From an uncultured archaeon (GTDB lineage Archaea; Thermoproteota; Nitrososphaeria; Nitrososphaerales; Gagatemarchaeaceae), in the NCBI GenBank assembly GCA_963817525.1, contig CAWFOU010000007.1, positions 896,001-960,000 on the forward strand: DNA of 64,000 bases. The letters are read 5' to 3'. A program made the translations under genes and the position numbers. Every line of letters starts with the position of its first letter. The first letter of the stretch is position 1. Below are positions 5,355-60,301 of this stretch, piece by piece. The notes under the pieces are model-generated. The model had not been told where the DNA came from. It did not search any database and worked only from the letters and a program-made list of their open reading frames with translations.

Positions 5355-5368
5355 ACGAACCTGAGCGC

Positions 5369-36683: not shown

Positions 36684-36713
36684 TCACGGATAGCGAAGGA
36701 TGCGGAACCCGGA

Positions 36714-38449: not shown

Positions 38450-38509
38450 TTACGCCCCAGTTTGTCCGGGAACTTTAAAAATGAATCCGATATCTGAACT
38501 AATGTTTCG

Positions 38510-40577: not shown

Positions 40578-40766
40578 CAGGTCGAGGGAGAGCCCGCCTT
40601 CGCGCTAACGACAACCAGCCGAGTCTCTCCATCCCCGCTTATCTCAAACGTGTAATTGGAGCGTCGGTTTAGTTAAGCCCTCGGGTTGAGATGTGGGGGA
40701 AGGTTTACCTCGTAAACCATCAGCTTATATCGATTGACGAGACCTCGGCGTCGGAAGCCAGAACTG

Positions 40767-42317
40767 ATGCAAAAGGAAAGCGCGGCAAGAGAGCGCAGCC
40801 GTCTTTCCACGGGGGTCGAGGGCCTGGATGGGTTGCTCTCGGGCGGTCTCCCGGAGGGAAGCATGATCGTGGTGAGCGGGCGACCGGGGACGGGTAAGAC
40901 GTTGCTTGCCTCGCAGTTCCTCTACGAAGGAGCGACCCATCGTGAGATGAGCCTCTACGTCTCCTTTGCGGAGACGACGGACCAGTTCCTTGCCAACATG
41001 GAGCAGTTCGGGCTGCGGTTCGGCAGGCTGATGAAGGAGCAGACATTCGCCTTCATGGACCTTACCGCCCTTGCTCCAGAAGGGGTCTCCGACGCACTCG
41101 ACTTGATAGTGGAACAGGTCGCGATCACAAAGGCGAAGCGGCTCGTCATCGACTCTTTCTCCTCGCTCGCGCAAGCCTTCGACAAGCTGATAGACGCGAG
41201 AATAGCGCTTCACGTAGTGTTCGGGAAGCTCGTGCACGACCTCGGATGCACGACGATGGTGTTGACGGAGATGCCCTTCGGCGAGGACAGGATCGGGCTG
41301 GGAATCGAGGAGTTTGTCGCAGACGGGATCATCGTGATGGACGTGGAGTCACGGAAAGGGAACCCGAGGCGCGCCATCAGCATAAGAAAGATGAGGGGCA
41401 CCGACATAACCCTCCGCCCCAGCTCCTACGAGATCAACAAGGGCGGGATAACCGTCTTCCCCGCGATTGCGCCCATGCGTAAGCTGAGCGTCCGGAGCAC
41501 TAGGGTCCCCACGGGGATTCCTGGATTCGATGCGCTCGTGGAGGGCGGGCTGTTGGAGAGGAGCGTCACCGGATTGGTGGGGGCCGCCGGGACCGGAAAG
41601 ACCACCTTCGGGATACAGTTCGTCTACTCCGGAGCCAAGGACTTTCGAGAAAAGGGGTTGTTCCTGTCATTCAGCGAATCGAGCGACCAGATAGGGCTCG
41701 TCGCCCGCAAGCTGGGGATGAGCCGCCTTGACGACCTGCAGAGGCGCGGAATGTTGAGGATGGAGACCATCATACCGGAGCTCTACACCCTTGAGGGGCT
41801 GGTGGCCCTTCTGCAGAGGCTTCTGGAGGAGGCCAACCCAAGGCGCGTCGTGCTCGACGACGTGACTGCGCTTGAAGCCATAACCGACGAAGACGAGTTC
41901 TATCGTCTGCTGAACACGATGGCGAAGCTGACCCAGCAGAAGGGCGCGACGCTGGTTATCTCGATCACCACCAACGAGCTGGCCGGAACCTCGATCACAG
42001 GAAAGTCGGTCTCCACCGTGATGGACGGCATCGTAATGCTCCGCTATGTTGAGCTGGAGGGTGCGATGGCCAGGACGATGGTCGTCCTCAAGTTGCGCGC
42101 GACGAAGCACGACAATTCGATTAGGAAGTTCGTCATAGCCAAGGGGGGGATCGAGGTTGAATCGGCTTTCCGGGGCTATTCGGGTTTGATGTCGGGCGAG
42201 GCCAGGCGGATGCTCGCGGATTTTGAGGAGGGAGAGGAAAAGATTGCTGCGAGGGAGACGGTCAGGAAGTTGGAGAGAAGGAAGGCGTTCGACAAGAGAA
42301 TTGAGGCAAAGGGGTGA
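40767..42317 (+). CDS. Double-domain KaiC-family ATPase
   Basis: Two RecA domains: GRPGTGKT/VIDS/KMRG and GAAGTGKT/VLDD/KLRA; SVSTVMDGIVML in the second domain. Confidence 0.92.
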   Translation: MQKESAARERSRLSTGVEGLDGLLSGGLPEGSMIVVSGRPGTGKTLLASQFLYEGATHREMSLYVSFAETTDQFLANMEQFGLRFGRLMKEQTFAFMDLTALAPEGVSDALDLIVEQVAITKAKRLVIDSFSSLAQAFDKLIDARIALHVVFGKLVHDLGCTTMVLTEMPFGEDRIGLGIEEFVADGIIVMDVESRKGNPRRAISIRKMRGTDITLRPSSYEINKGGITVFPAIAPMRKLSVRSTRVPTGIPGFDALVEGGLLERSVTGLVGAAGTGKTTFGIQFVYSGAKDFREKGLFLSFSESSDQIGLVARKLGMSRLDDLQRRGMLRMETIIPELYTLEGLVALLQRLLEEANPRRVVLDDVTALEAITDEDEFYRLLNTMAKLTQQKGATLVISITTNELAGTSITGKSVSTVMDGIVMLRYVELEGAMARTMVVLKLRATKHDNSIRKFVIAKGGIEVESAFRGYSGLMSGEARRMLADFEEGEEKIAARETVRKLERRKAFDKRIEAKG

Positions 42318-46162: not shown

Positions 46163-46492
46163 CTACGGCTCGAGTCCCTTCTCGTCGATGCTGAAAATCT
46201 CGGCTAGCTCGTTGTAGGACCGCATGAACTTCTTTCCCTTGTCCGTGGTCTTATAGAACGTCCTCTTTGGGTCCAGCGGGTCCTGCATAACCTCGATGAG
46301 ACCGCGGCTCACCACGAAGTCAAGATACTGCTGCACCTGTTTGGAGTTCAGGTTGCACTTGTACATTACGTGCGTCTTCAAAGTCTCCTGGTCGCATACC
46401 GTGAGAACGAGGTCGATTATCTCCAGCCAACCCCTGTTTCCCCAGCCAAGGACGCTCCTGCTCCCCATCTCTCTGGGGTTCTGTTCCATCAT
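46163..46492 (-). CDS. Archaeal winged-helix protein (HTH_45-like)
   Basis: RGWLEII..L, KTHVMYKCNLN and YKTTDKGKKF. Confidence 0.85.
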   Translation of the reverse strand: MMEQNPREMGSRSVLGWGNRGWLEIIDLVLTVCDQETLKTHVMYKCNLNSKQVQQYLDFVVSRGLIEVMQDPLDPKRTFYKTTDKGKKFMRSYNELAEIFSIDEKGLEP

Positions 46493-46494
46493 TC

Positions 46495-47202
46495 CTACCT
46501 TTTATTCCACACATGTTCGACCATTCCCTCCGGCTCCGGAACCCGAGCCGCAGAACGTGCCGCCTCTGAGACCTTCATCAACCTGAATTGCTTGTCCAGG
46601 CACAGCTTCACGACCTCGAAACTCTCGACGTAGTTGATGTGGGAGTTCAGCCTGCTCTGGAGCGCCCGGTACTCGGCGAGCCCCTTGATCGCGTTCGCCT
46701 TGAGGTATAGCTTCGCGTTCTGCGACCAGAATATCTCTATCAGCTCTACCTTCTCGTTGATCACGTCGGTGATGTCGTAGAACACCTGGGGCTCGAATTG
46801 CACGGTGAGCGGTATCTCGTAGGTTAGGATGTTGGAGGAGTTCCTTGCCGCCTCGAGAGTGGCCGTCCCGATGGCCCGGTGGTCATGGTGGACGTCCTTC
46901 TTCGAATGGGTGAAGATGACGTCGGGGTCCGCGAAGTTGACGTATGCCTCGATGCTGTTGATCAGCTCGGGACCCGGAGTGAGCTTCGTGTCCTCGTAGT
47001 CGTCGATCTTGAGGTCCTTGGCCCCGATGAACTTGGCAGATCTTTTGAGCTCCTCCGTCCTCTCGGTTGGTTTGCCGGACATGCCGCCCCTCGTCAGCGT
47101 GTACATGAACACGTTGTGGCCCTCTCTGGCGGCTTTGATGAGGGTCCCGCCGCATCCCAGCTCGATGTCGTCAGGATGGGCCCCTATCGCAAGGATGTTC
47201 AT
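46495..47202 (-). CDS. PIG-L family N-deacetylase
   Basis: AHPDDIELGCGG and DVHHDHR. Confidence 0.92.
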   Translation of the reverse strand: MNILAIGAHPDDIELGCGGTLIKAAREGHNVFMYTLTRGGMSGKPTERTEELKRSAKFIGAKDLKIDDYEDTKLTPGPELINSIEAYVNFADPDVIFTHSKKDVHHDHRAIGTATLEAARNSSNILTYEIPLTVQFEPQVFYDITDVINEKVELIEIFWSQNAKLYLKANAIKGLAEYRALQSRLNSHINYVESFEVVKLCLDKQFRLMKVSEAARSAARVPEPEGMVEHVWNKR

Positions 47203-47287
47203 CGAAAGTGGACTCCACGTTGTCTTATATTGCTGGTGGAATATTGTTAGCTAGGATTGGTGTAATCCGGCCGCCGCGTCCTGGCTC

Positions 47288-47992
47288 TCAAGCCCTCACG
47301 AGAGGCGTCCGGGTCCCCGCGTCGGGCGTCTTCATGCAGTCGGGTCCCAAGTTCGAGAGCATGTCGATTATCGACAGGTCAGGGACGAAGTCCGCAGTAA
47401 AGCGCTGCCTATAGGGAAGCGGCCGATAGTTCTGGTATACGACACTCAGGCCGTTCTTCGAGAAGGAGGCCTCATCCAGGTAGTTCTTCCCACCGCTGCC
47501 AGAGATGTACGTGTCGGCGCCCACGGCCTTGCAGGCGCTGATCAGCCTGTGCGTCGCCTTCCCGGTCACCTTCAGTTCTGACTCTCTCAGCATGGGGATC
47601 TTGATGCCCAACCAGTTCGCCGTCGCCTTTACGAGCTCGAAATCAAGGTCGAAGAGGAATTCCCAGTCCCTGCTGTAGACGGACCGGAGATAATCATCGT
47701 AGAGGTGGAAGAACGGGGCGTTGCAGTAGGAGGTCCGAATCTTCTTGAGGTGCTCAGGGCGCCAGTCGATCGAGTTGTTGATTCGCACGAGCTTGTTCGG
47801 CTGAAACTTGTCGTCCTTGACGATGGGCACGGAGATCCAGATGGGCCCCTGGGGGACGAGTATCCGATTCCTGTTGGTGAAGCGCTTGTCGTATTGGACG
47901 TCATCCATTATGACGAAGACGTCGGCCATGCTCAGCTTGTGAAAGAAACCCGGGTAGGGCAGGTACGCCGGCTGGTGGATTGCGACCCTCAT
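47288..47992 (-). CDS. WbqC family protein
   Basis: IHQPAYLPYPGFF.K..ADVF..DDVQY..NRNRI, YISGSGG and LSIID. Confidence 0.92.
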   Translation of the reverse strand: MRVAIHQPAYLPYPGFFHKLSMADVFVIMDDVQYDKRFTNRNRILVPQGPIWISVPIVKDDKFQPNKLVRINNSIDWRPEHLKKIRTSYCNAPFFHLYDDYLRSVYSRDWEFLFDLDFELVKATANWLGIKIPMLRESELKVTGKATHRLISACKAVGADTYISGSGGKNYLDEASFSKNGLSVVYQNYRPLPYRQRFTADFVPDLSIIDMLSNLGPDCMKTPDAGTRTPLVRA

Positions 47993-48019
47993 CTTTCTTC
48001 ACAAAGCCCAGTTTTCGCC

Positions 48020-48964
48020 CTAGACGGTCGCCGGCGGTGGGACAATCTCGAGGCCGAGATCCGTCCCGAGCAGCCCAGTGATCTCAGAAGCTCTCTTTCT
48101 GAGCGTTATCGTGGTGATCCCTGCAGCGAACGCTATCCTGATCTGCGTCGTGTACTGGGATGTCTGGCTCGCCGCCAGGTAGAGCGCCGCGGCTGCGATG
48201 GAGATCGGCCTCTTCCCCGCTAGGAGCGAGTCGTACTTTACCTGCTCCAAGATCTGGATGGCCCGCCTTTCTGTTATCCCACCAAGGCCGGCGCGGCTTG
48301 CTATCCTGGACACCTCGGATGCCGGGTCGAGGGAAGGCATGCGGAGACCCGCGCCCTTCATGAGGACCTTCGAATAGTGCCTGATGCTCTTCCTCTCGTG
48401 GAGGTCAGCTGTGTGCTCGATCTCCTCTGCCGACCGCGGGACGCCGCCCTCCTTGCACGCGAGATATACGGCAGCCTCGGCCAAGCCCACGATTGATCTT
48501 CGTCTGCCGCTTCCTTCCTCGATTCCCTTGCGGTAGATCTCGTAGGCCCTTTCGACGACACCCTTCCCGGCGGCTAACGAACCGCCGATGCGCTGGATCT
48601 CGCTGGCCGCCTTGGTCAGGTTCCTTCGGTTGGAGTCGCTCGCTATGGTCATGTTGTTCAACCGCCTGAGCCGGTTCATGTCTCCAACATCGACGATGTG
48701 CTTCCCTCTCGCGTCGAAGTCGCGGCTGTCTATCCTCGCCGGCAGCGAGACGTAGTACATCATGCTCGAATCCTCGTCCCCGCTCATGGAGCCCGACCTC
48801 TCTGAGCGCGAGCCGTAGGCCGCCGAAAAGGCAAGATCGTCGCTCCTGCTCACGGCCCCGCATGCTCCACAAACCTGCTCCCCCGTTTCGAAGTCTAAAA
48901 CCAAAACGGCCCTGCACTCTCCGCACTGCCCACTCTGCTTCCCTACCGTAGCGCTTACTTGCAC
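48020..48964 (-). CDS. tfb: Transcription initiation factor IIB (TFB) paralogue
   Basis: Zn ribbon CGEC..ETGEQVCGACG and two cyclin repeats (AAVYLACK..PRS; GKRP..AAAALYLA..TQ..IA..AGIT..TLRKR). GTG start about 25 bp after TTTTAT. Confidence 0.88.
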   Translation of the reverse strand: MQVSATVGKQSGQCGECRAVLVLDFETGEQVCGACGAVSRSDDLAFSAAYGSRSERSGSMSGDEDSSMMYYVSLPARIDSRDFDARGKHIVDVGDMNRLRRLNNMTIASDSNRRNLTKAASEIQRIGGSLAAGKGVVERAYEIYRKGIEEGSGRRRSIVGLAEAAVYLACKEGGVPRSAEEIEHTADLHERKSIRHYSKVLMKGAGLRMPSLDPASEVSRIASRAGLGGITERRAIQILEQVKYDSLLAGKRPISIAAAALYLAASQTSQYTTQIRIAFAAGITTITLRKRASEITGLLGTDLGLEIVPPPATV

Positions 48965-49181
48965 AGAATATCCTGCCGCGCCCCTTCCATAAAAGGAGCC
49001 GGGCACACATCTCGATAGGATTTCAGAGTTACAATGCACCTGAACAGGGCTCTGGAGGCCCCTGTGCCGAGAAGAGAAGGCGCCGCACTTTCGACCCCGC
49101 AAAAGCCGACGGGCACAAACAGTTCACTAGAACATAGTCGCATTCCGCTAATATAGAGAAGTGACGGTAAAGTCTTCTAGA

Positions 49182-49487
49182 ATGAAATACAGGAGCAGGA
49201 CCGACATAATCGCGGTGATTTTGCAAGCCTCGGCGAACGGGGCGACAAAGACTAGGTTGATGTATGGCGCGTATCTGTCATACGCCCAAATCAAGGAATA
49301 CTTAGAGTACCTGACAGAGAGGCAAATGATCGCATTCGAGGCTGGGACGCGCGCCTACACGCTCACCGACCTAGGCCTCCGCTTCTTGAAGGCATACCAC
49401 GAAATAAGTGAGATAAGCGGGACGGTCTCTCTCAAGAGCGCCGAGAGTCCAGGTCTGGCCTTGCCTGCGGCCCCCGGCCAACCCTAG
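49182..49487 (+). CDS. Archaeal winged-helix protein (HTH_45-like)
   Basis: MKYRSRTDII..IL..GATKTRLMYGAYLS..YTLTDLG; divergent from tfb. Confidence 0.88.
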   Translation: MKYRSRTDIIAVILQASANGATKTRLMYGAYLSYAQIKEYLEYLTERQMIAFEAGTRAYTLTDLGLRFLKAYHEISEISGTVSLKSAESPGLALPAAPGQP

Positions 49488-49535
49488 CGCGAGGGGGTCG
49501 TCCGTCCGGCGGTCACCGCATCGACGTTCAAAGGC

Positions 49536-50288
49536 CTAGGGCTCGTGGTTGGGGACGGAGACCAAGGGGTTGGGGTATGCGAGGGCCGCAAGAGCGCTCG
49601 CGACAGCGGCCAGATAGGGTGGAAGAGAACCGTAGGGGTTTGGCAGCCCTGCGTCGGTGATGTAGATGTAGCCGACGTGCGGGGACACCAGGGACGGATA
49701 CGACTGGTCGACGCTCTGCACGCCGTAGGCTATTACGGCAAAGTTGGCCTTTGCGTATCGAGAATGCCAGTCTTCTAGACGGGTCATGCTCGGGAGGCCT
49801 TGGTTCTCGTAGATCACAATGGTGTCGACCGTCCCGATGTAGCTGGGCAGGGTGCTAGACCCGGGGTTGCCCACCGTGAAGTCGAGCCCGAGCGACCTTG
49901 AATATGCGCTCAGCTTCGAATAATAGCGCTCTTTGCCCGGGACGTTGGACATCTCGTCGAAGAAGATCCCGGTGATCGGGTACCAGCTCTTGTATTGGTT
50001 TACCATCGACTCGATTGTCGAGATGGGCTTCGACGCGTAACCCGTCGGGACGTAGCCGATGACCGTCACGCCTGCCGCTTGAAGGCCCAGGATGCCCGAG
50101 ACGTAGTTCGGGTCCAACCTCGACCCTGGTCCGCTATCCGGGTTGATTATGGCTACAATGGGGACGCCAGGATTCGCCTCCTTCACGGAGGTCACGCTGG
50201 CCCAGGTGGTTCCCGGATACGTGTAGAGGGGTATCATGATTCCTGTCGTGGAGGCCGAGGCCGAGGAGGGGGCTGATGCTGGGCGCAA
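49536..50288 (-). CDS. Spherulation-specific family 4 (GH135) protein, single domain
   Basis: MIPLY.YP, INPDSGPG, IGYVPTGY, GIFFDE, NPG and IYEN. Confidence 0.88.
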   Translation of the reverse strand: MRPASAPSSASASTTGIMIPLYTYPGTTWASVTSVKEANPGVPIVAIINPDSGPGSRLDPNYVSGILGLQAAGVTVIGYVPTGYASKPISTIESMVNQYKSWYPITGIFFDEMSNVPGKERYYSKLSAYSRSLGLDFTVGNPGSSTLPSYIGTVDTIVIYENQGLPSMTRLEDWHSRYAKANFAVIAYGVQSVDQSYPSLVSPHVGYIYITDAGLPNPYGSLPPYLAAVASALAALAYPNPLVSVPNHEP

Positions 50289-50383
50289 CGGAATGTGAAG
50301 CCTAGCATGAAGATTAAGGGGTTAGCAAGGATGTTACGATATATTCTTCCGAAGGCTTGTGCAGAAATTTGAATACAGAGTCA

Positions 50384-50437
50384 TCTTCTAGTGGACGGTC
50401 GCTCGGAGAGGCGCTCCGCCCACGTAAGGCAGATAAG
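50384..50437 (+). promoter_or_regulatory. Candidate operator TCTTCTAGTGGAC plus CAGATAAG box
   Basis: The same two elements recur at 51541-51553 and 51565-51572. CAGATAAG lies at -31..-24 from the ATG in both. Confidence 0.55.
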
Positions 50438-50460
50438 CCGAGCATAGGGAGCGCAACCCT

Positions 50461-51522
50461 ATGGGAGAGAAGGCGACCGTCCTCGTCACCGCTGCGGGCG
50501 GTATAATCGGAGAGGGGATCATCAAGTCCCTGCGCCTCGCCAACTCGAAGCGCGGGCCCGTCTCCTACAAGATCCTCGCGGCTGACGCCGACCCTCGGGC
50601 GGCCGGTCTTTACAGGGCTGACGAGGGCTTCCTGGTACCGGGGGCCTCCTCCCCGGACTATATCGATCGCCTCGTCAAGCTGGCGAAAGCCAACGGGGTG
50701 GACGCGATTTTCGTTGGGGCGGACGAGGAGCTGGCGCCCGTGGCGTCGGTGTCGGGCCGCATCGCGAAGGAGAGCGGGGCGGTGCCCATCTCGAATCAGG
50801 CGGAGACAATCGCCATCGGCTCGGACAAGTGGAGGACATACGAGTTCATGAAGCGGAACGGACTGCCGTGCGCGGAGTCAGCCAAGCCTGAAGACAAAGA
50901 GCGTTTCGTCAAAGAGTTCCACTATCCCGTCGTCGTGAAGCCCAGGGAAGGGCACGGGTCGGAGCACTTCTACTTGGCCGGAGGGAGGGACGAGCTGGAC
51001 CAGGCCGTCGTAGCGATTCGTGCAAAGGGGTGGCACCCGATGCTGCAAGAGCACTTGGCCGATGGAGACAATGAGTTCACCACGGGAGTGACCGTGAGCA
51101 GGGGCACCCAGGTCATGTCTTCGATCGCCATGAAGAGGACCCTGAAGGGCGGCCAGACATACAAGGCGTTCATCGACGACTTCCCCGACGTCCGTAGCGC
51201 TGCGGAGGAGGTCGCCCTCCGGCTGGGTGGGTCGGGGCCAATCAACGTCCAGGCTAGGATGGACAAAGACGAACCAAAGGCCTTCGAGATAAACCCCCGC
51301 CTCTCCGCCTCCTGCCCCCTTCGCGCCGTCGCAGGGGTGAACGAGCCCGACATCCTCTATCGCAACTTTGTCCTCGGCGAGGCGATTCGGAGGGAGGGCT
51401 ACGAAAAGCTGGTCTGCCTGAGGTACTGGAACGAGGTCTACGTGCCATACGTCGACTACGAGCGGGCGCGAAAGACCGGGAAGGTTCGGACCTCGGGCTC
51501 GTGGATACCCGGCTATTTCTAG
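50461..51522 (+). CDS. ATP-grasp domain protein (CPS-like ligase)
   Basis: DKW.TY, VVKPREGHGS, LQEHL, NVQ and FEINPRLS. Confidence 0.88.
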   Translation: MGEKATVLVTAAGGIIGEGIIKSLRLANSKRGPVSYKILAADADPRAAGLYRADEGFLVPGASSPDYIDRLVKLAKANGVDAIFVGADEELAPVASVSGRIAKESGAVPISNQAETIAIGSDKWRTYEFMKRNGLPCAESAKPEDKERFVKEFHYPVVVKPREGHGSEHFYLAGGRDELDQAVVAIRAKGWHPMLQEHLADGDNEFTTGVTVSRGTQVMSSIAMKRTLKGGQTYKAFIDDFPDVRSAAEEVALRLGGSGPINVQARMDKDEPKAFEINPRLSASCPLRAVAGVNEPDILYRNFVLGEAIRREGYEKLVCLRYWNEVYVPYVDYERARKTGKVRTSGSWIPGYF

Positions 51523-51540
51523 TACTTTCCGAGTGATGAT

Positions 51541-51572
51541 TCTTCTAGTAGACAGACGTGAATTCAGATAAG
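51541..51572 (+). promoter_or_regulatory. Candidate operator TCTTCTAGTAGAC plus CAGATAAG box
   Basis: 12/13 identical to 50384-50396; box at identical spacing to the ATG at 51596. Confidence 0.55.
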
Positions 51573-51595
51573 GGGTGACGTATACATAACGATGA

Positions 51596-53155
51596 ATGAA
51601 GAAGTCCCTTGTACTTCTCGCTGCGGCGGTGGCGATTGGTCTGTTGCTCGTGGTCGCATTCTTCGCGACGCCCTACTTCGGGAATACCGCCGCGCCTCGC
51701 TCGACGGTCCTGAGCCTGAAACAGTCAGGGGTCGAAAGCTACGACCCTGAGAACAACACGAACCTGCAATCGAGCAGCTTTTCCGGGGACGCAGGAAACG
51801 GGAGCTACACAGTCTTCGACGTCGCCTCCTATCTTCACATAGGCGTCAAGGCCCCCTCCAACGGTTCTTGGGCTGGCTACTACCAAGTGACGCCCAGCAC
51901 GTATGCCTCCCTGGTGCAAGCCACTCTGGTTGCCCCCGCTGGGAACCTGACGGGCTATTTCACGAACGGCATCTATGTCCAGGCTTCTAATCAGGTGCTG
52001 AATTATGTGACCTGCGTGTCCGTGACCAACTCCACTGGTACGTTCTGGATGGTCGTGCACGCGAGCAAGAACGGAGACTCGGCTTCTAATCCCACCACCT
52101 ACGACACCCTCTGGCACGACCCGTCCGAACACCAGTCGCCTATCCGCGACTGTGAGATCATCACGAACGGCCAGAACGCGCTGGAGGTCTACCTTGACCA
52201 CAACATTGTGTACCAAAGCAACTCGCTCTCGCTTGGGATACAACAGCCCTTCAATTTCTTCGTCGGGGTCGAGTCTGAGTACGCGCAACAGCTGACATAT
52301 GGGTCGTCGAGCGACTTTTACGTGACCAACGGCGACGCCGTGAATGTGACCGGCCTCCCCAGCAGCGCGGCCTTCGCGGAGATCGTGGACAGCCACGGGT
52401 ACGTCCTCGCTAGCGCCCCGGTGGCGTCCGGTAAGGCATCGATCAACCTCGGCGGGAGTTCGTTCCCGCTCGTGGGCTACATCGAGGTCTTCGACAAGGC
52501 CCCAACGGCAATCAACGACAGCTCAGGCGAGTTGGCGTCGACTGCGAGCGAGGTGAGCATCTTCGGCGGAGACGTATATGCGCTAGGGCCGAACCCCTCG
52601 ACGACCTCGCAGCTCACGGTCAATCCTGAGGACACGAACGGCAACGAGCTCAATGGCTACTACACCGTACTCATGAAGAACGGTGTGCAGGTGGCCGCGG
52701 GCTACAGCCCGACGAGCTTCACCCTCGAGACCGGTCAGACCTATACGGTGGAGATCTCAGACTATGGCAGCTACGTCTTCGACCACTGGAGCACCGGCTC
52801 GGCTTCGAGGATCATGCAAATATCGATCTCCGGCGACACGTCGATTAACGCGATATTCAGGGAAGCGAAGAGCCCTCCGCCGAGCGGGCAATCTTTGATC
52901 TACGTGAGCGCGGTCAACTCAACTGGCGGCGCCATAACCGGGATCTACAGCACCCTGTGGCAGAACGGGTTCATGGTAGCCCAGGCTTACTCTCCCACCT
53001 CGTTCGTGGTGAACAACGACGCCACGTATCAGGTCACGATGTCGAACTTCGGGTCAAACACGTTCGTCAATTGGCAGGGCGGGTCCAATGACACGTTCGA
53101 CTCGGTCACCACGGGGACTGGCACGTCGACCTACCTGGTAGCTGTCTACAAGTAA
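51596..53155 (+). CDS. Secreted or anchored beta-rich surface protein with two C-terminal repeat domains
   Basis: N-terminal signal/TM and many N-x-S/T sites; two GYYT.L..G..VA.GYSPTSF.....TY.V...YG...F..W repeats. Confidence 0.8.
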   Translation: MKKSLVLLAAAVAIGLLLVVAFFATPYFGNTAAPRSTVLSLKQSGVESYDPENNTNLQSSSFSGDAGNGSYTVFDVASYLHIGVKAPSNGSWAGYYQVTPSTYASLVQATLVAPAGNLTGYFTNGIYVQASNQVLNYVTCVSVTNSTGTFWMVVHASKNGDSASNPTTYDTLWHDPSEHQSPIRDCEIITNGQNALEVYLDHNIVYQSNSLSLGIQQPFNFFVGVESEYAQQLTYGSSSDFYVTNGDAVNVTGLPSSAAFAEIVDSHGYVLASAPVASGKASINLGGSSFPLVGYIEVFDKAPTAINDSSGELASTASEVSIFGGDVYALGPNPSTTSQLTVNPEDTNGNELNGYYTVLMKNGVQVAAGYSPTSFTLETGQTYTVEISDYGSYVFDHWSTGSASRIMQISISGDTSINAIFREAKSPPPSGQSLIYVSAVNSTGGAITGIYSTLWQNGFMVAQAYSPTSFVVNNDATYQVTMSNFGSNTFVNWQGGSNDTFDSVTTGTGTSTYLVAVYK

Positions 53156-53668
53156 GAGCCACTGGCCTTGGCAAGGGGCCAGGTGGATAATAGGGTAAAT
53201 GAAGCGCTGGAGAGCGCCTAGGCCCTACTCCACTCCATGACGGAGAGCGCCAACGACGAGCGGGCGAAGCGGGCTCCCGGGCTCGCGAAATCGCTTGACG
53301 GGCAATTCGGGGACGCGGTAAGGATGTTCGCATAGACGCTGATGACCAGAGACCGGGGGACCAGGGGCGACCGGCTAGCCCTCCTCCGATCCTACAAGAC
53401 GCCCGTCGAGGCCCCGGGGGCCTATATCGTGGGCAAAGCAAAGTACCTAGCAGCCAAGCAGCCGTGGACCCTCTGGCAGGAAGCGGTCGCACGCGCTCGG
53501 TTCGTGGAGATGAGCGCAATCTTTCATGCGTCCAGCGTGCCCGTTTCCGTCGGAGACCATGGCGGCTACAAGCAATCGTGGTTGCGAGCGCCTCGACTCG
53601 GCAGTGCGTCCGAAAGAGATCCCTCCTCGGTTAAGCCAAGTCCTTCGCCGCCTCGTGGGGCGGCGCAA

Positions 53669-55327
53669 TCACATGAACCGCGCGAAGAATATGCTTGCGG
53701 CCCGACCGATGTTCGCCCCCACGTAGATGGTCGAGAGCGCGGCGACCGTTGCCGTTGCCAGCAGGTAGGCCATCTCTATGTTCTGGAAACCCGTGTGGGC
53801 GAGCACGAGCCCTCCAACGAGCACGACGAGCGCCCCCACCATCGCGATTATCGCCAGTCCCATCATCCTGTTCATGAACAACATGAAGACGCCGTTGGCG
53901 AAGAACACCACGAGCAATACGTTCGCGAAGGAGGCGATGTGAAGGATCTGGAGGCTCGTGGGGTTCAGCGCCGTCGCGGGCAGGAGCCTCGGCGCCAGCA
54001 AGTCCAAGGCCGCGGCCACCGCGACGGCCGAGGCCACAGAGGCGACCATCACCATCCTGTATCGCGAGAGCAGAAAGGGCTGAATCTTGTCAGCCTCAGA
54101 GACGGAGTACTCCAAGGTGGCGTTGCTCACCTGGGCAAAGACGGGGCTCATCATCGCGTACTGGATGATCAACGCGGGGAAGATCACCAGGAGCGCCGGA
54201 TCTGCCCCCAGGTGATAGACGGTGTTAAAGACGAAGGGCAGAGCTACACCGTCAGCCGTCTTTATGGGGTTGAAGAACCAAGAGAGGACCCTGTCACCGA
54301 ATATCAGGACGAAGAAGAAAGCCCCGTAGAGGTAGTTGGGCAGCGTCTCCCACAGCTGGACTGAGAACCTTGATCTTATGGTGCTCTTGTTGGTCGTGCT
54401 ATGCCTGAAGAACGAGGGTGCGCCGCTCTCGAGCCGGAACGAGTCTCCCTTCAAGAGCTTGAGCTGGTCGTAGAAGGCGAACGACGAGAGGATAGCAAGG
54501 GCTGCGAAGAGCGCATAGAAGTAGCGGGTGACGTCGTTCGGTATCAGGGCGCCCATCTCGAAGTAAACGAGAATCAGGGCTGAGAAGGCGAGCGAATACG
54601 AGACCACGAGTTGCACCATCTTCCTGAGCGTGTAGATGATGGCGTAGATCACCCTCTGCAGGGAGACCCCGATGAGGCTTATCATCCCGATCTCGAACAG
54701 GCCGATGGGGAAGCTCGTCAGCACCGCGAGGGCGTATAGCCCCCCCACGGTCACCGCGAGGACGGCCCCCACCACGAGATAGGCCCTCTTCAAGACTCGC
54801 CTCGCCTCCGCCAGGTTGCCTTGGTTGTGATAGAAGGCGAAGAACCTGTTGAAGCCTTGCAGAGGCCCTTCCGTGATGAAAATACCCGCAAACAGGCCTG
54901 CCATGAAGACTGTCGTGACCTTCAACGGGAGGAGGAGAGACAGCCACAGCGACACTCCGGCGATGAAGAGCAACAGGAGCGCCCCGACCCATCCGAACGA
55001 TAGCGCCAAGCCCTCCCCGATCCGCCTGGCGGTCGTGGGAAGCTTCACGTAGGACTCGTGGGAGCTGGGGTGGGCCTCCTCGCCGCCGTCGAGGATGTCG
55101 ACGAACTCGTAGATCTCTCGAGAGACTTCGTTGAGGTCGTCGAACCCGTTCCGTTGCGCGTCCTGCTTCGTGTATCCGAGGACCTCGAGGAAGACCATCA
55201 CGTCGGCGACGTTGTTCACCCTGGGTTGCAGTTCGGCGATCGACCTCGCCGCCTTCATGACGAACGCCCTGGACTCTACCGACCCCGAGCTCGCCTCCGG
55301 AGATGACTCCTCCAGCCCCATGGGCAA
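53669..55327 (-). CDS. PelG-like multi-pass polysaccharide synthase/export membrane protein
   Basis: About 12 TM segments with a central DRVLSWF..YHLG.D motif; last gene of the GT4-epimerase operon. Assignment rests on topology and context. Confidence 0.65.
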   Translation of the reverse strand: MPMGLEESSPEASSGSVESRAFVMKAARSIAELQPRVNNVADVMVFLEVLGYTKQDAQRNGFDDLNEVSREIYEFVDILDGGEEAHPSSHESYVKLPTTARRIGEGLALSFGWVGALLLLFIAGVSLWLSLLLPLKVTTVFMAGLFAGIFITEGPLQGFNRFFAFYHNQGNLAEARRVLKRAYLVVGAVLAVTVGGLYALAVLTSFPIGLFEIGMISLIGVSLQRVIYAIIYTLRKMVQLVVSYSLAFSALILVYFEMGALIPNDVTRYFYALFAALAILSSFAFYDQLKLLKGDSFRLESGAPSFFRHSTTNKSTIRSRFSVQLWETLPNYLYGAFFFVLIFGDRVLSWFFNPIKTADGVALPFVFNTVYHLGADPALLVIFPALIIQYAMMSPVFAQVSNATLEYSVSEADKIQPFLLSRYRMVMVASVASAVAVAAALDLLAPRLLPATALNPTSLQILHIASFANVLLVVFFANGVFMLFMNRMMGLAIIAMVGALVVLVGGLVLAHTGFQNIEMAYLLATATVAALSTIYVGANIGRAASIFFARFM

Positions 55328-55328
55328 A

Positions 55329-56306
55329 CTACCGTCTCTGCCCTTGCTGGATTTGGAGCTCGAGCCTGGACGCCATGTAGCGCATCAGCTCGTCCAGCCC
55401 TTGCTCCATGGAGACGCTCCTCCTGTAGCGCAGGACGGACTCGATCTTCTCTATCGAGGACATCCCGAACCGCACATCTCCCGGCCTGGATGGAGCGAAC
55501 GTATGTGGTAGCTCCCGGGCGTGGGCTATCGTCTTTAGGATCTCCAGCAACTCCAGTATGCTCGTGGACCGCCCCGAGGCCACGTTGAAGACCTGGCCCA
55601 CCGCCGCGTCGTCCTCCATGGCCAGCATGTTCGCTTGCACGATGTCTCTCACGTTCACGAAGTCGCGCACCTGTCTCCCGTCGCCGTACACCGTGACGGG
55701 CTCTCGACGGAGTATGGCGTTGACGAAGAGCGTTATCACGCCGCTGTAGTCGCTCATGGCCTGCCTAGGCCCGTAGACGTTGAAGTATCTCAGCATCACG
55801 CCCTCGAGACCATACGTCTGGCGGTATGCGTGAACGTAGTTCTCGACGCACATCTTCGACGCCCCGTAGGGAGAGGACGGGTAGCAGAGGAGGTCTTCCT
55901 TCGCTTTCACGTCTCCCACCGCCCCGTAGACTGCGGCCGACGAGGCGAAGACGAACCTCCTGATCTTCTTCGCGAGGCAGAAGTTCATCATCTGGAGGCT
56001 CATGTTCACGTTCGCATCGTGGACGACCATCGGCTCTTTGACCGACCGCAGGACGTTCGCGATCGCCGCTTCATGGAAGAGGACGTCAATGTGGTGAACC
56101 CCGGCCAGTAGCTGGTCAATCTTTCTCCCGTCCCCGACGACGACGTGCAGGAGGTCGCTTCCCTCGTGCTGGCTCAGGTTCTCGAGCTTCCCCGTGCTGA
56201 GGTCGTCGACCACGTATGTCTCCACCCTTCTCCGGATCAGCTCGTCGACGATGTGGCTCCCTATGAACCCGGCCCCTCCCGTAACCACAGCTCTGGAGGC
56301 CTTCAT
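55329..56306 (-). CDS. NAD-dependent UDP-sugar 4-epimerase (extended SDR)
   Basis: VTGGAGFIGSH, SSAAVYG, YGASK, RYFNVYGPRQ and GDGRQVRDF; ATGA overlap with the GT4 stop. Confidence 0.92.
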   Translation of the reverse strand: MKASRAVVTGGAGFIGSHIVDELIRRRVETYVVDDLSTGKLENLSQHEGSDLLHVVVGDGRKIDQLLAGVHHIDVLFHEAAIANVLRSVKEPMVVHDANVNMSLQMMNFCLAKKIRRFVFASSAAVYGAVGDVKAKEDLLCYPSSPYGASKMCVENYVHAYRQTYGLEGVMLRYFNVYGPRQAMSDYSGVITLFVNAILRREPVTVYGDGRQVRDFVNVRDIVQANMLAMEDDAAVGQVFNVASGRSTSILELLEILKTIAHARELPHTFAPSRPGDVRFGMSSIEKIESVLRYRRSVSMEQGLDELMRYMASRLELQIQQGQRR

Positions 56307-57793
56307 CGAGTGACCACCAGTTCGCTGTCGGGCCGAGCGGTGAGGACTGCGCCGGGCGCGAGCAGCTCTTCGTACAACCTCCGGTAGAGGTCGGTCGAAG
56401 TGGAGAGCTCGAAATTGTCCCTCGCCTTCTTCATAGCGGCCTCCCCCAGGCGCTTCCTTAGGGGCACGTCCTTGAGGAGCGTCACGATAGCCCTGCCCAA
56501 CTCCGTGGAGTTCCTGCTCCGCACCAGGATGCCGCATCCCTCGACGGCCTCCCTCGTCCCCCCCACGTCCGTGGCGACGACGGGCTTGCCGCATGCCATC
56601 GCCTCGATGGCCGCGAACGGGAACGCCTCGGTGATGCTGCTCATGGCGACAACGTCGCCGGTGTTGTACGCCTTCTCGGGCTCGTTCGTCCTGCCCATGA
56701 ACTGGACGTTGCCCTCGAGCTTCAGGTCCTTGACGGTCTTCACGCACTTCTTTGAATACTCAAGGTCGAAAGACTCGCCGTAGATCAAGCACATGACGTC
56801 CGGGATCTCCTTCCTGACGCCGTCCATCGCCGTGATCAGATTGACCAGGTCCTTGAAGATCTCGATCCTCCCCACGTAGACGACCACCGGGCGCGTGGTC
56901 TTCCTTGGCACCGCGATCGGCCTGAAGCGCTTCGTGTCAATCCCGTTGTAGATCACCCTGATCTTCTTCGCCGGGACTCCGAGGCGTAGCTCCCACTCGG
57001 TGTTGGCGTTACAGACAGGCGCCACGATGTCGGCCACCGAGTAAACCGTCTTCACGATGTTCATCGCGACCACCTTCATCATCACCTTCGATGCCTCGTC
57101 GTATGTGTACCCGTTGTAGTAGAGCAGCAACTCCCTGAACGCCACTCCGTGCTCCGTCACTATCACAGGGCATCCGCTCTCGGCCTTTGCGACGATCGCG
57201 ACCAGAGAGGGCGTCCACGCTAGGGCGCAGTGGACGAGGTCTACCTTGGGCAGGTCAACGGAGAGGGTCTGCATCACCCGCTGCAGCATCTGGTAGGCGA
57301 GGAGGGCCTCGTTGAGGCTCATCTCCCTATAGACCTGGTCCTCCCGGAGGATCCTCAGGAATCCCTCCCAGGCAGCCGGGCTCTCCACGCACTTCTTGTA
57401 GTCGAAGGTCCTGAAGAGCCTGTGAAGCTCAAGAATCGACTCTGAGACCTCCGAGGGCTGACATTCAGAAGAGATTATCCTTGAGACGAAGCGGAGGAAG
57501 CGCGGGATGAACTGCTCTTCGACCGCCGCCTGCGACGTAACGAGCACCCGCCCCAGAAAAGGCCTGTCGGAGAACTCCTCGTACCTGCTGGCCCCGAAGA
57601 GAGGCAGCGAGATCACTTTCGTGACGTTCTTCGGGACTCTGAAGGCTCCGTTGGAGTTCGAGTTGGAGAGCTGGTTGTATACCACGAACTCCCAGTCGGT
57701 TAGCTTTTCGATGAGGGCCTTCTCCCATGTGAAGACGCCGCCCGTGGCGATGTTGGGATATCCGTCCCAGCTAACTAACAATACTTTTTTCAA
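56303..57793 (-). CDS. PelF-like GT4 glycosyltransferase (DUF3492 N-domain)
   Basis: GYP...GGV.TW..LI, TEHG...RE, VIYNGID, GRI..FKD and the EX7E motif EAFPFAAIE. Confidence 0.85.
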   Translation of the reverse strand: MKKVLLVSWDGYPNIATGGVFTWEKALIEKLTDWEFVVYNQLSNSNSNGAFRVPKNVTKVISLPLFGASRYEEFSDRPFLGRVLVTSQAAVEEQFIPRFLRFVSRIISSECQPSEVSESILELHRLFRTFDYKKCVESPAAWEGFLRILREDQVYREMSLNEALLAYQMLQRVMQTLSVDLPKVDLVHCALAWTPSLVAIVAKAESGCPVIVTEHGVAFRELLLYYNGYTYDEASKVMMKVVAMNIVKTVYSVADIVAPVCNANTEWELRLGVPAKKIRVIYNGIDTKRFRPIAVPRKTTRPVVVYVGRIEIFKDLVNLITAMDGVRKEIPDVMCLIYGESFDLEYSKKCVKTVKDLKLEGNVQFMGRTNEPEKAYNTGDVVAMSSITEAFPFAAIEAMACGKPVVATDVGGTREAVEGCGILVRSRNSTELGRAIVTLLKDVPLRKRLGEAAMKKARDNFELSTSTDLYRRLYEELLAPGAVLTARPDSELVVTR

Positions 57794-58439
57794 CTGAAGG
57801 CCTCTTTCGCGTCCCGGCAGCCGATGTCGAGGAGACCGGCGCCTCCGGCTTGGACCCCCGCGCGTCCCTTAGACGGAGGAACCCCTCTATCGCGCCGTTT
57901 ACATCGGAAGTCTGAGGCAGCGCGAGACGGAAGGAGACAGCCCTTACCGCCGTGCTGCGCCTGATCCTGAGCACTCTGTCCAAAGTCTCGCTGGTGGCGA
58001 ACGGGCTCGACTTCCTCGCTAGAGAGGCGCACTTGTCGTAGATCTGAGTGGCCCTCTGGGCGTCGCCACCTACTATGAAGTAGTCGTGGGCCTCCTGCAT
58101 CAACCACAGCGCCTCCCGTATGGATTTCCCGAAGACCGCCTCGGCCTGCTCTTCGTACATCCTGGCCGTCTCGAAGTAGAGGTTGCGTGCCGCGTTATAG
58201 TTCCCCGTCTTCTCCAAACAGCTTGCAGCACAGGAGCAGCTCAGGGCGGCCCTGACATGGAGCCCCTTGCTCAGGCAGCCGGCGGCGTCGCGAAGATAGA
58301 GGACCGTCGCCTCCGCGAACCGCCCGTCCTCCTCCATCCCAGTCGCGGTGAGCCACAGGTTTGACGCGTCTGTGAGCTTGTCCTTCCATGTAGTAGCTTG
58401 CACGGCTTCCTGGAGCGCCGGGGAAGCCTTAAGGGCCAA
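57771..58439 (-). CDS. TPR/SNAP-like alpha-helical protein
   Basis: Repeating A..Y..AA..Y helices; overlaps the GT4 start. Confidence 0.65.
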   Translation of the reverse strand: MALKASPALQEAVQATTWKDKLTDASNLWLTATGMEEDGRFAEATVLYLRDAAGCLSKGLHVRAALSCSCAASCLEKTGNYNAARNLYFETARMYEEQAEAVFGKSIREALWLMQEAHDYFIVGGDAQRATQIYDKCASLARKSSPFATSETLDRVLRIRRSTAVRAVSFRLALPQTSDVNGAIEGFLRLRDARGSKPEAPVSSTSAAGTRKRPSVEKSIVS

Positions 58440-58543
58440 TCAAGTTTCTACAAGAGAAATCGTCTGGTGGATTCCTACTATCAGATTCCTACATGTCAAG
58501 GTTGCCTCAGCGACTAATGCACCGGGGAGTAACTATCCTCAGT

Positions 58544-60301
58544 TTGTGTTCTATTATCGGCTATATCGGGTCGATGGACGGCGCCCCGCTGCTGGTCAAG
58601 GCTCTGGAAAGGATGGAATACCGTGGATATGACAGCGCTGGCGTCGCGATGCTATCCGACGGCAGCATCCTCATGAAGAAGGGGGTCGGAAGGGTCGAGC
58701 AAGTCAACTCCTCCCAGATGCTCGAGCTTCTCCCGGGCAAGGTCGGGATAGGGCATACCAGGTGGGCCACGCACGGTGGCGTGACCGAGGTCAACGCGCA
58801 TCCTCACCTCTCCTGGTCCGGGAAGATAGCCATAGTGCACAACGGGATCATAGAGAACTACGAGGAGCTCAAGGCCGAGGTGGGACAGCGCGGCTACCTC
58901 TTCAGATCCGAGACCGACAGCGAAGTCATCGCGAACCTCTTGCAGTGCAACCGCGACCTCGGGATGACCGTCGACGAGGCGGTCATCGAGACTCTTAGAG
59001 AGCTGAAGGGTAAGTACGCCTTTGTCGCGCTCATGGACGATGGGACGCTCGTCGGAGCGAGGAGCCAAGCCCCCTTGATCCTCGGCATCGGGAAGAACGG
59101 CGCGTTCGTGTCAAGCGACATAATCGGGTTCGTCCAGGAGGCGGACGACGTAATCTATTTGGACAATGGCCAGTTCGTGTCGATCGACCACGAGAGGATC
59201 CGGATATCCGACTTCAGCGGCGCTCCGGTCGCGCAACGCGTGGTCAAGGTCTCGAAGGAGTTGGCGGACGCGGAGAAGGGGATCTACGTCCACTATACGT
59301 TGAAGGAGATAAACGACCAGCCCGATGTCCTCGCCAACGCCGGAGGACACTCCAGGGCGGAGCTCGATGTCCTCGCGGGGATGATCAAGCAAGCCGAGGT
59401 CGTCTACATAACCGGAAGCGGCAGCAGCTACAATGCGGCGCTATTTGGGAAGTATCTGTTTTCGCAGCACGCTGGCATAAGGGTCGAACCAATCATCTCG
59501 AGCGAGGCGCAGTTCTCCCCCATGTACCTCGACAATCGCTCTCTCTTGCTCGCCATCTCCCAGAGCGGCGAGAGCGCGGACGTGCTCGAGGCCGCCGCGA
59601 TAGCAAAGGAGCACGGCGCGATGGTCGCCTCGATAGTGAACGTGCCGACGTCCTCTCTGGCGCGCCTCTCCTCGATCTCCGTGAGCCTCAACTGCGGCCC
59701 AGAGGTCGGGGTCGCCGCGACGAAGAGCTTCACGTCCCAGCTCGCGGTGCTCTATGCGCTGAACGATATGCTGTGCGGTGGAAGCGATTATGACCTGCAA
59801 AGTGCTCCCTCCGCGATGTCAGAAATCCTCTCCGACACCCAGTCTATTCGCGAACTTGCGAAAGAACTCCAGGACATCACCGACCTGTATGTCCTCGGCG
59901 ACGGCGCCCACTACCTCATAGCTTGCGAGGCGGCCCTCAAGCTCAAGGAGCTCGCGTACGTCCATGCCGAGGCGATGCCCAGCGGCGAGCTGAAGCACGG
60001 CCCTCTTGCCCTCCTCGACTCCACATCGTACGTGCTGGTCTTCAACCCCTACGACTCTACATACTCGAACACGCTCGCATCCGCCCACGAGGCCAAGGCG
60101 CGCGGGGTCAAGGTGATAGGCGTCTCCGACAGGCCGAACGAGATCTACGACCACTGGATCAGGATCCCATACGTCGAGGAGCAGCTCTTCCCGATCGTGG
60201 AGATAGTCCCCATCCAGCTTCTGGCATACCACATGGCCGTGCAGCGGAAGGCCAACCCTGACTATCCAAGGAACCTCGCTAAATCTGTGACCGTAAAGTA
60301 G
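58544..60301 (+). CDS. glmS: Glutamine--fructose-6-phosphate transaminase (isomerizing)
   Basis: TTG start gives M-CSIIG (Cys1); EYRGYDSAG, GHTRWATHG, SQSGES, AATKSF and PRNLAKSVT. Confidence 0.96.
   Translation: MCSIIGYIGSMDGAPLLVKALERMEYRGYDSAGVAMLSDGSILMKKGVGRVEQVNSSQMLELLPGKVGIGHTRWATHGGVTEVNAHPHLSWSGKIAIVHNGIIENYEELKAEVGQRGYLFRSETDSEVIANLLQCNRDLGMTVDEAVIETLRELKGKYAFVALMDDGTLVGARSQAPLILGIGKNGAFVSSDIIGFVQEADDVIYLDNGQFVSIDHERIRISDFSGAPVAQRVVKVSKELADAEKGIYVHYTLKEINDQPDVLANAGGHSRAELDVLAGMIKQAEVVYITGSGSSYNAALFGKYLFSQHAGIRVEPIISSEAQFSPMYLDNRSLLLAISQSGESADVLEAAAIAKEHGAMVASIVNVPTSSLARLSSISVSLNCGPEVGVAATKSFTSQLAVLYALNDMLCGGSDYDLQSAPSAMSEILSDTQSIRELAKELQDITDLYVLGDGAHYLIACEAALKLKELAYVHAEAMPSGELKHGPLALLDSTSYVLVFNPYDSTYSNTLASAHEAKARGVKVIGVSDRPNEIYDHWIRIPYVEEQLFPIVEIVPIQLLAYHMAVQRKANPDYPRNLAKSVTVK

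Follow-up and report, generated by a model that had tools for sequence, protein, structure and literature searches.

Three described systems stand closest to the locus reported here: the pelABCDEFG cluster of Pseudomonas aeruginosa, with pelX known from P. protegens; the Gram-positive pelDEA(DA)FG loci, as in Bacillus cereus, which work without the outer-membrane proteins PelB and PelC; and the galactosaminogalactan (GAG) cluster of the fungus Aspergillus fumigatus, comprising uge3, sph3, gtb3, agd3, and ega3. In bacterial Pel, PelD is the receptor for cyclic di-GMP (c-di-GMP), PelA is a deacetylase/hydrolase, and PelE is a membrane-anchored TPR protein, while in the fungus the hydrolase Sph3, of family GH135, trims or releases the GAG. 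Here, we describe a locus at positions 46163-60301 of a 64,000-nt stretch (hereafter the window) from the genome of an uncultured, soil-type archaeon of the Gagatemarchaeaceae, in the phylum of the ammonia oxidisers (contig CAWFOU010000007.1), in which a TPR/SNAP-like helical-repeat protein, a PelF-like glycosyltransferase, a nucleotide-sugar 4-epimerase, and a PelG-like membrane protein are encoded in one operon. With moderate confidence, we read this core as a synthase-dependent module of the Pel type that produces an exopolysaccharide and has been passed down within the class Nitrososphaeria. The window has a G+C content of ~60%, its proteins find their nearest relatives in Nitrososphaerales/Thaumarchaeota genomes, and the domain scans covered 62 distinct open reading frames (ORFs).

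The four core genes lie on the reverse strand. The TPR/SNAP-like gene comes first (57771-58439, 222 aa) and is followed by the PelF-like gene, which combines DUF3492 with a GT4 domain (56303-57793, 496 aa, TTG start), the gene of the PelX-like 4-epimerase, a short-chain dehydrogenase/reductase (55329-56306, 325 aa), and the PelG-like gene (53669-55327, 552 aa, 12 helices). Divergent from the operon is glmS, encoding glutamine--fructose-6-phosphate transaminase (58493-60301, forward strand; TIGR01135 622.9 bits, cut-off 418). Reading the junctions base by base, we found that the TAG stop of the TPR-like gene (57773-57771) falls 23 nt inside the PelF-like gene, whose TTG start at 57793 yields MKKVLLVSWDGYPN, the family consensus; the ATGA at 56306-56303 is common to the stop of the PelF-like gene and the ATG start of the epimerase gene; and the membrane-protein gene starts 1 nt (TTG) or 7 nt (ATG) past the epimerase stop. 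The genes overlap or abut, and the tightly coupled operon claimed in an earlier note on this DNA is borne out at base level. Comparison with orthologues puts the true starts of the two divergent genes later, probably at a GTG at 58403 for the TPR-like gene and at a TTG at 58544, giving MCSIIG, for glmS, which leaves ~140 bp of divergent intergenic DNA; the TIGR01135 alignment of glmS begins at residue 19.

For comparison with other genomes, a pattern from the PelF-like alignment was scanned against 185,579 species genomes, and the best 80 of 554 confirmed loci (L001-L080) were used, the carrier counts being lower bounds. Loci L001-L022 belong to Nitrososphaerota, namely Nitrosotalea, Nitrososphaera, Nitrosomirales, Nitrosopumilaceae, Gagatemarchaeum, and unnamed lineages; L023 is from Bathyarchaeota and L024 from Bizionia (Bacteroidota), whereas L025-L080 match the generic GT4 C-terminal domain only.

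The PelF-like glycosyltransferase matched DUF3492 over residues 3-274 (102.7 bits) and Glycos_transf_1 over residues 296-455 (E 5.5e-35, 120.9 bits). On the NCBIfam PelF equivalog model NF038011, it scored 128.9 bits against a cut-off of 100 and covered model positions 9-489 of 489, and this match ranked above those of all glycosylation models and was the sole one that was full-length and above its cut-off. In contrast, the Agl16 model reached 72.6 bits against a cut-off of 575, and the Agl16, BshA, MshA, and Pgl models all aligned with the C-terminal half only, far under their cut-offs. The same division was seen in a control set of 13 GT4 proteins from the fetched loci: on the PelF model, all six DUF3492-GT4 proteins reached 105.8-180.7 bits and covered the model wholly or for the most part, whereas all seven generic GT4 proteins stayed under the cut-off at 49.8-91 bits and matched with the C-terminal part alone. 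E389 and E397, two glutamates with a spacing of eight residues, are invariant in 20 homologues, as are R309 and K314; the catalytic and UDP-binding signature of GT4 enzymes consists of two Glu residues with this spacing and an Arg/Lys in a GRxxxxKG-type loop. In phylogenetic trees of the GT4 hits, the window protein groups with those of the 22 Nitrososphaerota loci and with one protein each from Bathyarchaeota and Bacteroidota in a DUF3492-GT4 clade, on a long branch relative to other GT4 proteins, with an SH-aLRT (approximate likelihood-ratio test) support of 100 in a 78-row tree, from which L049, L068, and L071 were left out for length, and of 100/99 in a careful 33-row tree. Judged by sequence, the enzyme groups with PelF, as previously proposed, rather than with the Agl-type enzymes of N-glycosylation. 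The tree speaks neither for nor against a bacterial origin of the archaeal clade, as L023 and L024 join only at 89/67, both on long branches.

The PelG-like protein is predicted to begin with a cytoplasmic domain of ~100 aa, itself helical, and to cross the membrane with the 12 helices behind it. In a family-level Pfam scan, 27 of the 39 members matched PelG (PF16933), with a best E of 7e-9, and no other family of the multidrug/oligosaccharidyl-lipid/polysaccharide (MOP) superfamily or of other transporters was matched, which speaks against an unrelated transporter; precomputed annotation placed PF16933 on 12 of 93 homologues. An hhalign comparison of the family profile with the PelG-like protein of Bizionia gave a probability of 98.6% and an E of 1e-15 over 461 columns, and this alignment takes in the N-terminal domain, which the Pfam PelG model leaves uncovered. 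The AlphaFold2 (AF2) model, with a mean predicted confidence (pLDDT) of 81.2, contains four N-terminal helices and twelve long helices, and Foldseek placed it in the MOP superfamily (MATE, WzxE, and MurJ), with 27 hits at E<=1e-3 and 4mlb as the best (9.9e-6). PDB sequence searches with the protein and with its profile returned no meaningful match.

The epimerase matched Pfam Epimerase at E 1.1e-61 and scored 194 bits on the NCBIfam GalE model, below the cut-off of 262. Its two best PDB matches are tied, 6dnt at 7.3e-60 (206.1 bits) and PelX 6wjb at 8.8e-60 (205.8 bits), and the alignment with the latter pairs residues 2-308 with residues 3-308 of 310, with the Ser and YxxxK columns in line. 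The PelX preprint describes 6WJB, 6WJA, and 6WJ9 as PelX, a group 3 UDP-GlcNAc C4-epimerase. The Ser and YxxxK residues of the PelX signature Sx24Yx3K are aligned, but the 6dnt match is equally good, and the substrate is not fixed by the sequence. The enzyme thus appears to be as near to crystallized PelX as to anything in the PDB, in agreement with the earlier likening of this UDP-sugar 4-epimerase to PelX, and UDP-GlcNAc would be its putative substrate.

The TPR/SNAP-like protein matched Pfam SNAP (E 5.4e-7, 29.8 bits, cut-off 25), and its AF2 model (pLDDT 82) is a set of stacked helices. It belongs to a small family: a profile search of 1.84 billion proteins yielded 181 representative clusters at E<=1e-3, and a search of the Atlas returned only its own unnamed clusters. 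In two distant members, P0353 and P0367, the repeat domain is preceded, as judged by eye, by several hydrophobic stretches at the N-terminus, a layout that we take to be that of PelE. The C-terminal motif EKSIxS(QLG), EKSIVS in the window, is the conserved PelF N-terminus (MKKVLLV) in the overlapping frame (57771-57793), and we dropped it as a candidate docking peptide. A complex prediction of the PelF-like and TPR-like proteins gave a score of 0.00 in two runs and a mark of 0.32, without controls, and speaks neither for nor against binding.

The four genes recur together in related genomes. Counting the species-level genomes of L001-L022 by tblastn with the window proteins, we found the TPR-like gene beside the PelF-like gene in 22 of the 22 loci. 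Nineteen of them also have the PelG-like gene, the three misses all having a contig end within ~1.5 kb (<=1.4 kb left), and the epimerase gene likewise in 19, with only a weak, divergently placed match in L018 and with L020 and L021 cut by the contig. An overlap of 4, 23, or 32 nt between the TPR-like and PelF-like genes is kept in 21 of the 22 loci, and in the remaining one, L012, the epimerase gene stands between them. Because it recurs in 22 species genomes with the overlap kept in 21, the arrangement is more than chance, and the conserved linkage that the earlier note had called for is confirmed. The trees of PelF and PelG (20 shared rows) have 13 of 17 splits in common, and each shares 8 of 17 with the tree of the TPR-like protein, whereas none of 500 label shuffles exceeded 3 common splits; such congruence demonstrates that the genes are inherited together, not that the proteins touch. 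In the Bathyarchaeota locus, the genes run TPR-like, PelF, PelG, and the TPR-like ORF was recognized by hhalign at 97% and E 1.2e-10. The putative scaffold, the PelF-type glycosyltransferase, the epimerase, and the PelG-type protein make up the constant part of the locus. The overlap lengths are discrete and track clades. In the Thaumarchaeota locus L012 (8333-21013), the order is TPR-like, epimerase, PelF, PelG, and a second TPR-like gene and a second epimerase gene lie on the other strand; the locus also holds three paralogues of the 519-aa surface protein described below.

The remaining genes form a variable part. Next to the operon, glmS is found in 10 of the 22 loci, while GH135 is linked in 9 (some absences falling at contig ends), the ATP-grasp gene, convergent to the PelG-like gene, in 8, and PIG-L in 7. 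WbqC, the small winged-helix regulator (wHTH), and paralogues of the surface protein are each linked in five, the regulator standing beside PIG-L in L013, L015, L019, and L022, and the paralogue of transcription factor B (TFB) in four, each time beside a small wHTH gene. The neighborhood of glmS, ATP-grasp, PIG-L, WbqC, TFB, and wHTH is conserved and the positions shuffle, which suggests a functional tie rather than membership in the machine.

A lipid-linked glycan pathway, making an N-glycan, an S-layer glycan, or an envelope glycolipid, would assign the core genes other roles: the GT4 enzyme would add one or more sugars to a dolichol-linked intermediate, the MOP protein would be a Wzx/MurJ-type flippase, and the surface protein would be the acceptor. 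The surface protein (51596-53155, forward strand, 519 aa) is secreted or anchored, with a hydrophobic segment from residue 1, two C-terminal beta-rich repeats, and 9 NxS/T sequons; it has no Pfam or NCBIfam match, and the Atlas gave weak leads only (0.86, InlB B-repeat clusters). Its sequons and its place inside the locus suit an acceptor, and in the same direction the membrane-protein model matches WzxE (9g95, E 2.6e-4) and MurJ as well as MATE, and the C-terminal half of the GT4 weakly matches PglJ/PglH/Agl16-type enzymes. However, the PelF model beats every glycosylation model on the GT4, PelG is the sole Pfam MOP family that the membrane-protein family matched, no oligosaccharyltransferase or dolichol-phosphate glycosyltransferase was found in the window, and the surface protein is absent from 17 of the 22 loci. 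We therefore regard a lipid-linked pathway as unlikely; it is the main rival reading, and the fold search is compatible with it.

The locus also encodes a GH135/Spherulin4 catalytic domain (49536-50288, reverse strand; Spherulin4 143.8 bits, cut-off 30.2). The Sph3 structures 5d6t and 5c5g match it at E 1.9e-13, with its GIFFDE aligned with the GIFFDE of Sph3. The D166A variant of Sph3 is catalytically dead, and by chain numbering D166 would map onto this motif. Upstream, the frame ends at a stop codon at 50321, so that the locus protein has no signal or anchor, and its database copy begins at M18 (MIPLY...). In contrast, 9 of 10 GH135 orthologues in the related loci start with a hydrophobic segment near the N-terminus, and the length of several is 459-876 aa. 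Among its relatives in the protein database, an identical copy has 233 aa, as has an 86% relative, an 80% relative has a leader, and 75%-identical relatives of 374-376 aa add a Ser/Thr linker and a C-terminal beta domain resembling the repeats of the surface protein. The locus gene (49536-50321) looks recently shortened, its 86% identical relative being shortened alike: the residues before the domain (RPASAPSSASAST) still resemble the region behind the leader in the relatives (MRPASAVVSPSTT), and the hydrophobic part is gone.

A second GH135 paralogue of 566 aa is encoded elsewhere in the window (26230-27930, forward strand; Spherulin4 E 1.9e-40, domain residues 44-256), outside the locus. It has a hydrophobic leader (segment at residue 11), a Ser/Thr-rich linker and C-terminal extension, and a poly-Thr tract; its identity with the locus copy is 44% over 230 aa. 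What the earlier note said of GH135 stands as regards the Sph3-type domain; it had missed that the locus copy is leaderless and that a second, leader-bearing copy exists. Just upstream of the second copy, the window encodes an MGH1-like glycoside hydrolase at 23463-24674 and, at 24801-25919, a Kelch-repeat protein.

That GH135 and PIG-L are linked to the operon could instead be incidental or catabolic, with the archaeon scavenging foreign galactosaminogalactan or chitin-like material. Sheridan et al. 2023 (PMC10640624) read the secreted GH135 proteins of Gagatemarchaeaceae as degrading fungal cell walls. A catabolic role would also fit the resemblance of PIG-L to diacetylchitobiose deacetylase, the absence of GH135 from 13 of the 22 loci, some of them cut by contig ends, and the second, unlinked GH135 in the window. 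Against it, PelG-like, ATP-grasp, and GH135 genes keep the same relative position in L001, L002, L003, L006, L013, and L016, which come from different families, and GH135 adjoins the anabolic genes glmS, epimerase, and glycosyltransferase. The fungal Sph3 is itself reportedly a biosynthetic-cluster enzyme required for GAG production. Taken together, an incidental or catabolic linkage seems distinctly improbable.

All the genes listed in the earlier note are present in the ORF listing and in the Pfam and NCBIfam scans, and their entries are right; the list overlooked two genes inside the locus, the TFB (TFIIB) paralogue (48020-49102, reverse strand; TFIIB repeats E 4.2e-25, Zn ribbon 1.3e-4) and, divergent from it, a second HTH_45 winged-helix regulator (49161-49487, forward strand; HTH_45 E 2.4e-19). 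The first HTH_45 wHTH gene (46163-46492, reverse strand; HTH_45 E 4.9e-16) lies 2 nt downstream of the gene of the PIG-L/LmbE-family sugar N-deacetylase (46495-47202, reverse strand; PIG-L E 9.5e-26). The latter protein has no hydrophobic segment and starts directly with the catalytic domain, which matches from residue 4, and it is therefore cytoplasmic. Its best PDB matches are BshB1 (6p2t, 2.4e-13), TT1542, LmbE (2ixd), and diacetylchitobiose deacetylase, which we take to be cytoplasmic enzymes acting on small substrates (GlcNAc conjugates in the case of BshB1 and diacetylchitobiose deacetylase). WbqC (47288-47992, reverse strand; PF08889 E 1.6e-67) belongs to an uncharacterised family and has no solved relative in a PDB sequence search. 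The ATP-grasp ligase, annotated as a 'carbamoyl phosphate synthase-like protein' (50461-51522, forward strand; NF009402 311.5 bits, cut-off 218), has 2pn1 as its best PDB match (1e-18). A 513-bp gap (53156-53668) separates the convergent ends of the surface-protein and PelG-like genes, a place where most of the related loci instead have the ATP-grasp gene directly against the PelG-like one. Rfam and tRNA scans of the whole window, the gap included, returned nothing, and a 137-aa ORF overlapping the gap (53106-53519, reverse strand) has no Pfam match.

A small-molecule amino-sugar conjugate of the bacillithiol/mycothiol style, that is, a low-molecular-weight thiol or solute for which the GT4 would make a GlcNAc glycoside, PIG-L would remove the acetyl group, and the ATP-grasp ligase (linked in 8 loci of the 22) would acylate the amine, is very unlikely: the C-terminal half of the GT4 does score 103 bits on BshA and 87 bits on MshA, and PIG-L, whose best solved relative is BshB1, scores 100 bits on the BshB1 model, but these values are far under the cut-offs of 273.7, 462.5, and 182.5, respectively, PIG-L is missing in 15 and ATP-grasp in 14 of the 22 loci where the PelG-like and TPR-like proteins are constant, and the 12-helix MOP protein and GH135 would have no role in such a pathway.

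Several observations weigh against the Pel-type reading of the core and its polymer. The identification of the membrane protein with PelG stands at the level of the family, by the 27 of 39 matches and the MOP fold; the window protein alone scored 12.3 bits on PF16933 (E 0.076), below the cut-off of 29, and had no NCBIfam match. Even for bacterial PelG, how transport works is, to our knowledge, not settled. In the TPR-like protein, there is no hydrophobic or membrane segment such as a membrane-anchored PelE would show, and Foldseek against the PDB returned gamma-SNAP, TPR, and designed repeat proteins with a best E of 7e-3 and none at E<=1e-3. To call it the counterpart of PelE would thus be overstated, the likeness being one of position and fold class, and the conservation of EKSIxS is uninformative on binding, since it is an alternative frame of the PelF N-terminus. 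Among the 62 window ORFs, we found no PelD, GGDEF, or GAF domain no PelA or CE4/polysaccharide-deacetylase domain, and no GH114 domain; PelB and PelC were not seen in the window scans either, and the absence of PelD and PelA/B/C that the earlier note had reported is borne out. The locus GH135 consists of the catalytic domain only, without a leader or a C-terminal extension. Moreover, Sph3 binds Pel and does not hydrolyse it, so that a GH135 partner points to a GAG-like GalNAc polymer, not to Pel itself. The accessory genes are linked in only 4-10 of the 22 loci, and in L026, a locus from Thermoplasmata, PIG-L and ATP-grasp genes accompany a GT4 of an unrelated kind, from which it follows that the two may be a separate sugar-remodelling module.

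Two wider claims are not supported. A complete route from precursor to polymer had been proposed; glmS is present, but no GlmM/GlmU-type genes are found among the 62 window ORFs, and PelD and PelA are absent. Likewise, the polymer had been called cationic, but the only deacetylase is the leaderless PIG-L, linked in 7 of the 22 loci, and no Agd3-type or other secreted deacetylase occurs in the window ORFs scanned.

Given a Pel-type module, we propose the following mechanism. GlmS would supply the hexosamine pool, and the PelX-like epimerase would interconvert UDP-GlcNAc and UDP-GalNAc. The cytoplasmic PelF-like enzyme, a putative retaining GT4, would polymerise N-acetylhexosamine at the membrane, and the PelG-like MOP-fold protein would take the chain to the other side, either as such or bound to a carrier. 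The soluble TPR/SNAP-like protein may serve as the scaffold, in the role that PelE and perhaps PelD have in bacteria; the overlapping reading frames may cause it to be made in fixed proportion to PelF, and it may cooperate with the additional N-terminal domain that the PelG-like protein has in the cytoplasm. Because no c-di-GMP receptor is found, control is more likely to act on transcription, by way of the TFB paralogue and the HTH_45 regulators linked to the operon. Outside the cell, a leader-bearing GH135, such as the locus copies of the relatives or the second copy in the window, would trim or release the polymer. PIG-L, WbqC, and ATP-grasp would form a looser cytoplasmic accessory set, which probably deacetylates and then re-acylates an amino-sugar precursor. 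The analysis establishes the families of the proteins, the layout of the operon, the conserved linkage, and the missing parts, and from these the substrate, the polymer, the contacts among the proteins, and the control are inferred.

We put forward a broader proposal only tentatively. Nitrososphaeria, including the ammonia-oxidising lineages (Nitrosotalea, Nitrososphaera, Nitrosomirales, and metagenome-assembled genomes of Nitrosopumilaceae), may possess a vertically inherited, c-di-GMP-independent Pel-type machine in which a soluble SNAP/TPR-like subunit and the N-terminal domain of PelG replace PelD/PelE, a dedicated TFB paralogue and wHTH regulators exert control, and the product is the suspected amino-sugar matrix or glycocalyx; the archaeal GH135 would then process the cell's own polymer, not fungal walls. 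In the databases, many of the archaeal proteins already bear a name given by annotation pipelines, either 'GT4 family glycosyltransferase PelF' or 'polysaccharide biosynthesis protein PelF'. A full-text literature search, which did not cover subscription journals, found no paper on an archaeal Pel-like locus. A 2024 mBio paper proposes, in its accessible text, an amino-sugar-rich outer layer in Nitrosocosmicus and names no machine; that text does not mention Pel, and two of its supplementary files do not contain PelF, PelG, DUF3492, Spherulin, or GH135. If the locus does make a matrix polymer, it would provide a genetic handle on archaeal aggregation and biofilm formation in soils and treatment plants. 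In that case, it would also show how a Pel-type synthase can work and be regulated without c-di-GMP, and the archaeal GH135 would have to be re-read from fungal-wall degradation to the processing of a self-polymer. The locus offers a minimal set of scaffold, glycosyltransferase, epimerase, and MOP-fold protein for dissecting the roles of PelF versus PelG.

Other parts of the window hold features of their own. At 35091-39643 (reverse strand), two membrane proteins of the LPG_synthase_TM family, one of them a GtrA-like fusion, are encoded around a GvpD/KaiC-like P-loop ATPase (36714-38147), and a full KaiC is encoded at 40734-42317. A DDE transposase with an IS240-type domain (4268-5284, reverse strand) lies between leucine-biosynthesis-type genes and an aminotransferase gene, and the G+C content drops to ~56% around it, at 4001-8000.

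Compared with bacterial Pel, the archaeal locus likewise pairs a cytoplasmic DUF3492-GT4 with a 12-helix PelG-family protein, encodes a helical-repeat protein just upstream of the glycosyltransferase, and includes in the cluster a PelX-like enzyme, a putative UDP-GlcNAc 4-epimerase. It differs in lacking PelD, PelA, and PelB/PelC, in having a soluble helical-repeat protein where PelE is membrane-anchored, in the ~100-aa cytoplasmic N-terminal domain that its PelG-like protein has beyond the Pfam model, and in the place of the epimerase gene, which lies inside the operon between the glycosyltransferase and membrane-protein genes. The Gram-positive loci resemble it in needing no PelB/PelC, as the archaeon would require, but they still have PelD and PelE as well as a deacetylase like PelA, and the archaeal window showed none of the three. 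With the GAG cluster of Aspergillus fumigatus, it shares a UDP-hexose 4-epimerase and a GH135 hydrolase, the archaeal protein keeping the FFDE motif with the putative catalytic Asp; however, the putative archaeal polymerase and exporter are of the bacterial PelF/PelG type, an Agd3-type secreted deacetylase and a GH114 are lacking in the window, and the locus GH135 has no membrane anchor. In the case of Bizionia, the DUF3492-GT4 scores 163.3 bits on the PelF model, the PelG-like protein has the same N-terminal extension, PelD is likewise absent, and a hydrolase of a GAG/Pel-type family (GH114) is linked. In contrast to the archaeal operon, the Bizionia locus has neither a TPR-like gene upstream nor an operon epimerase, and GH114 and a 1348-aa DUF2194 protein stand in place of GH135, ATP-grasp, and PIG-L. 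Its gene set (L024, 9965-19875) runs from the PelF-like and PelG-like genes through GH114 and a 642-aa protein without a family match to the DUF2194 protein, with no PelD/PelE, and thus represents another non-canonical Pel/GAG-like gene set.

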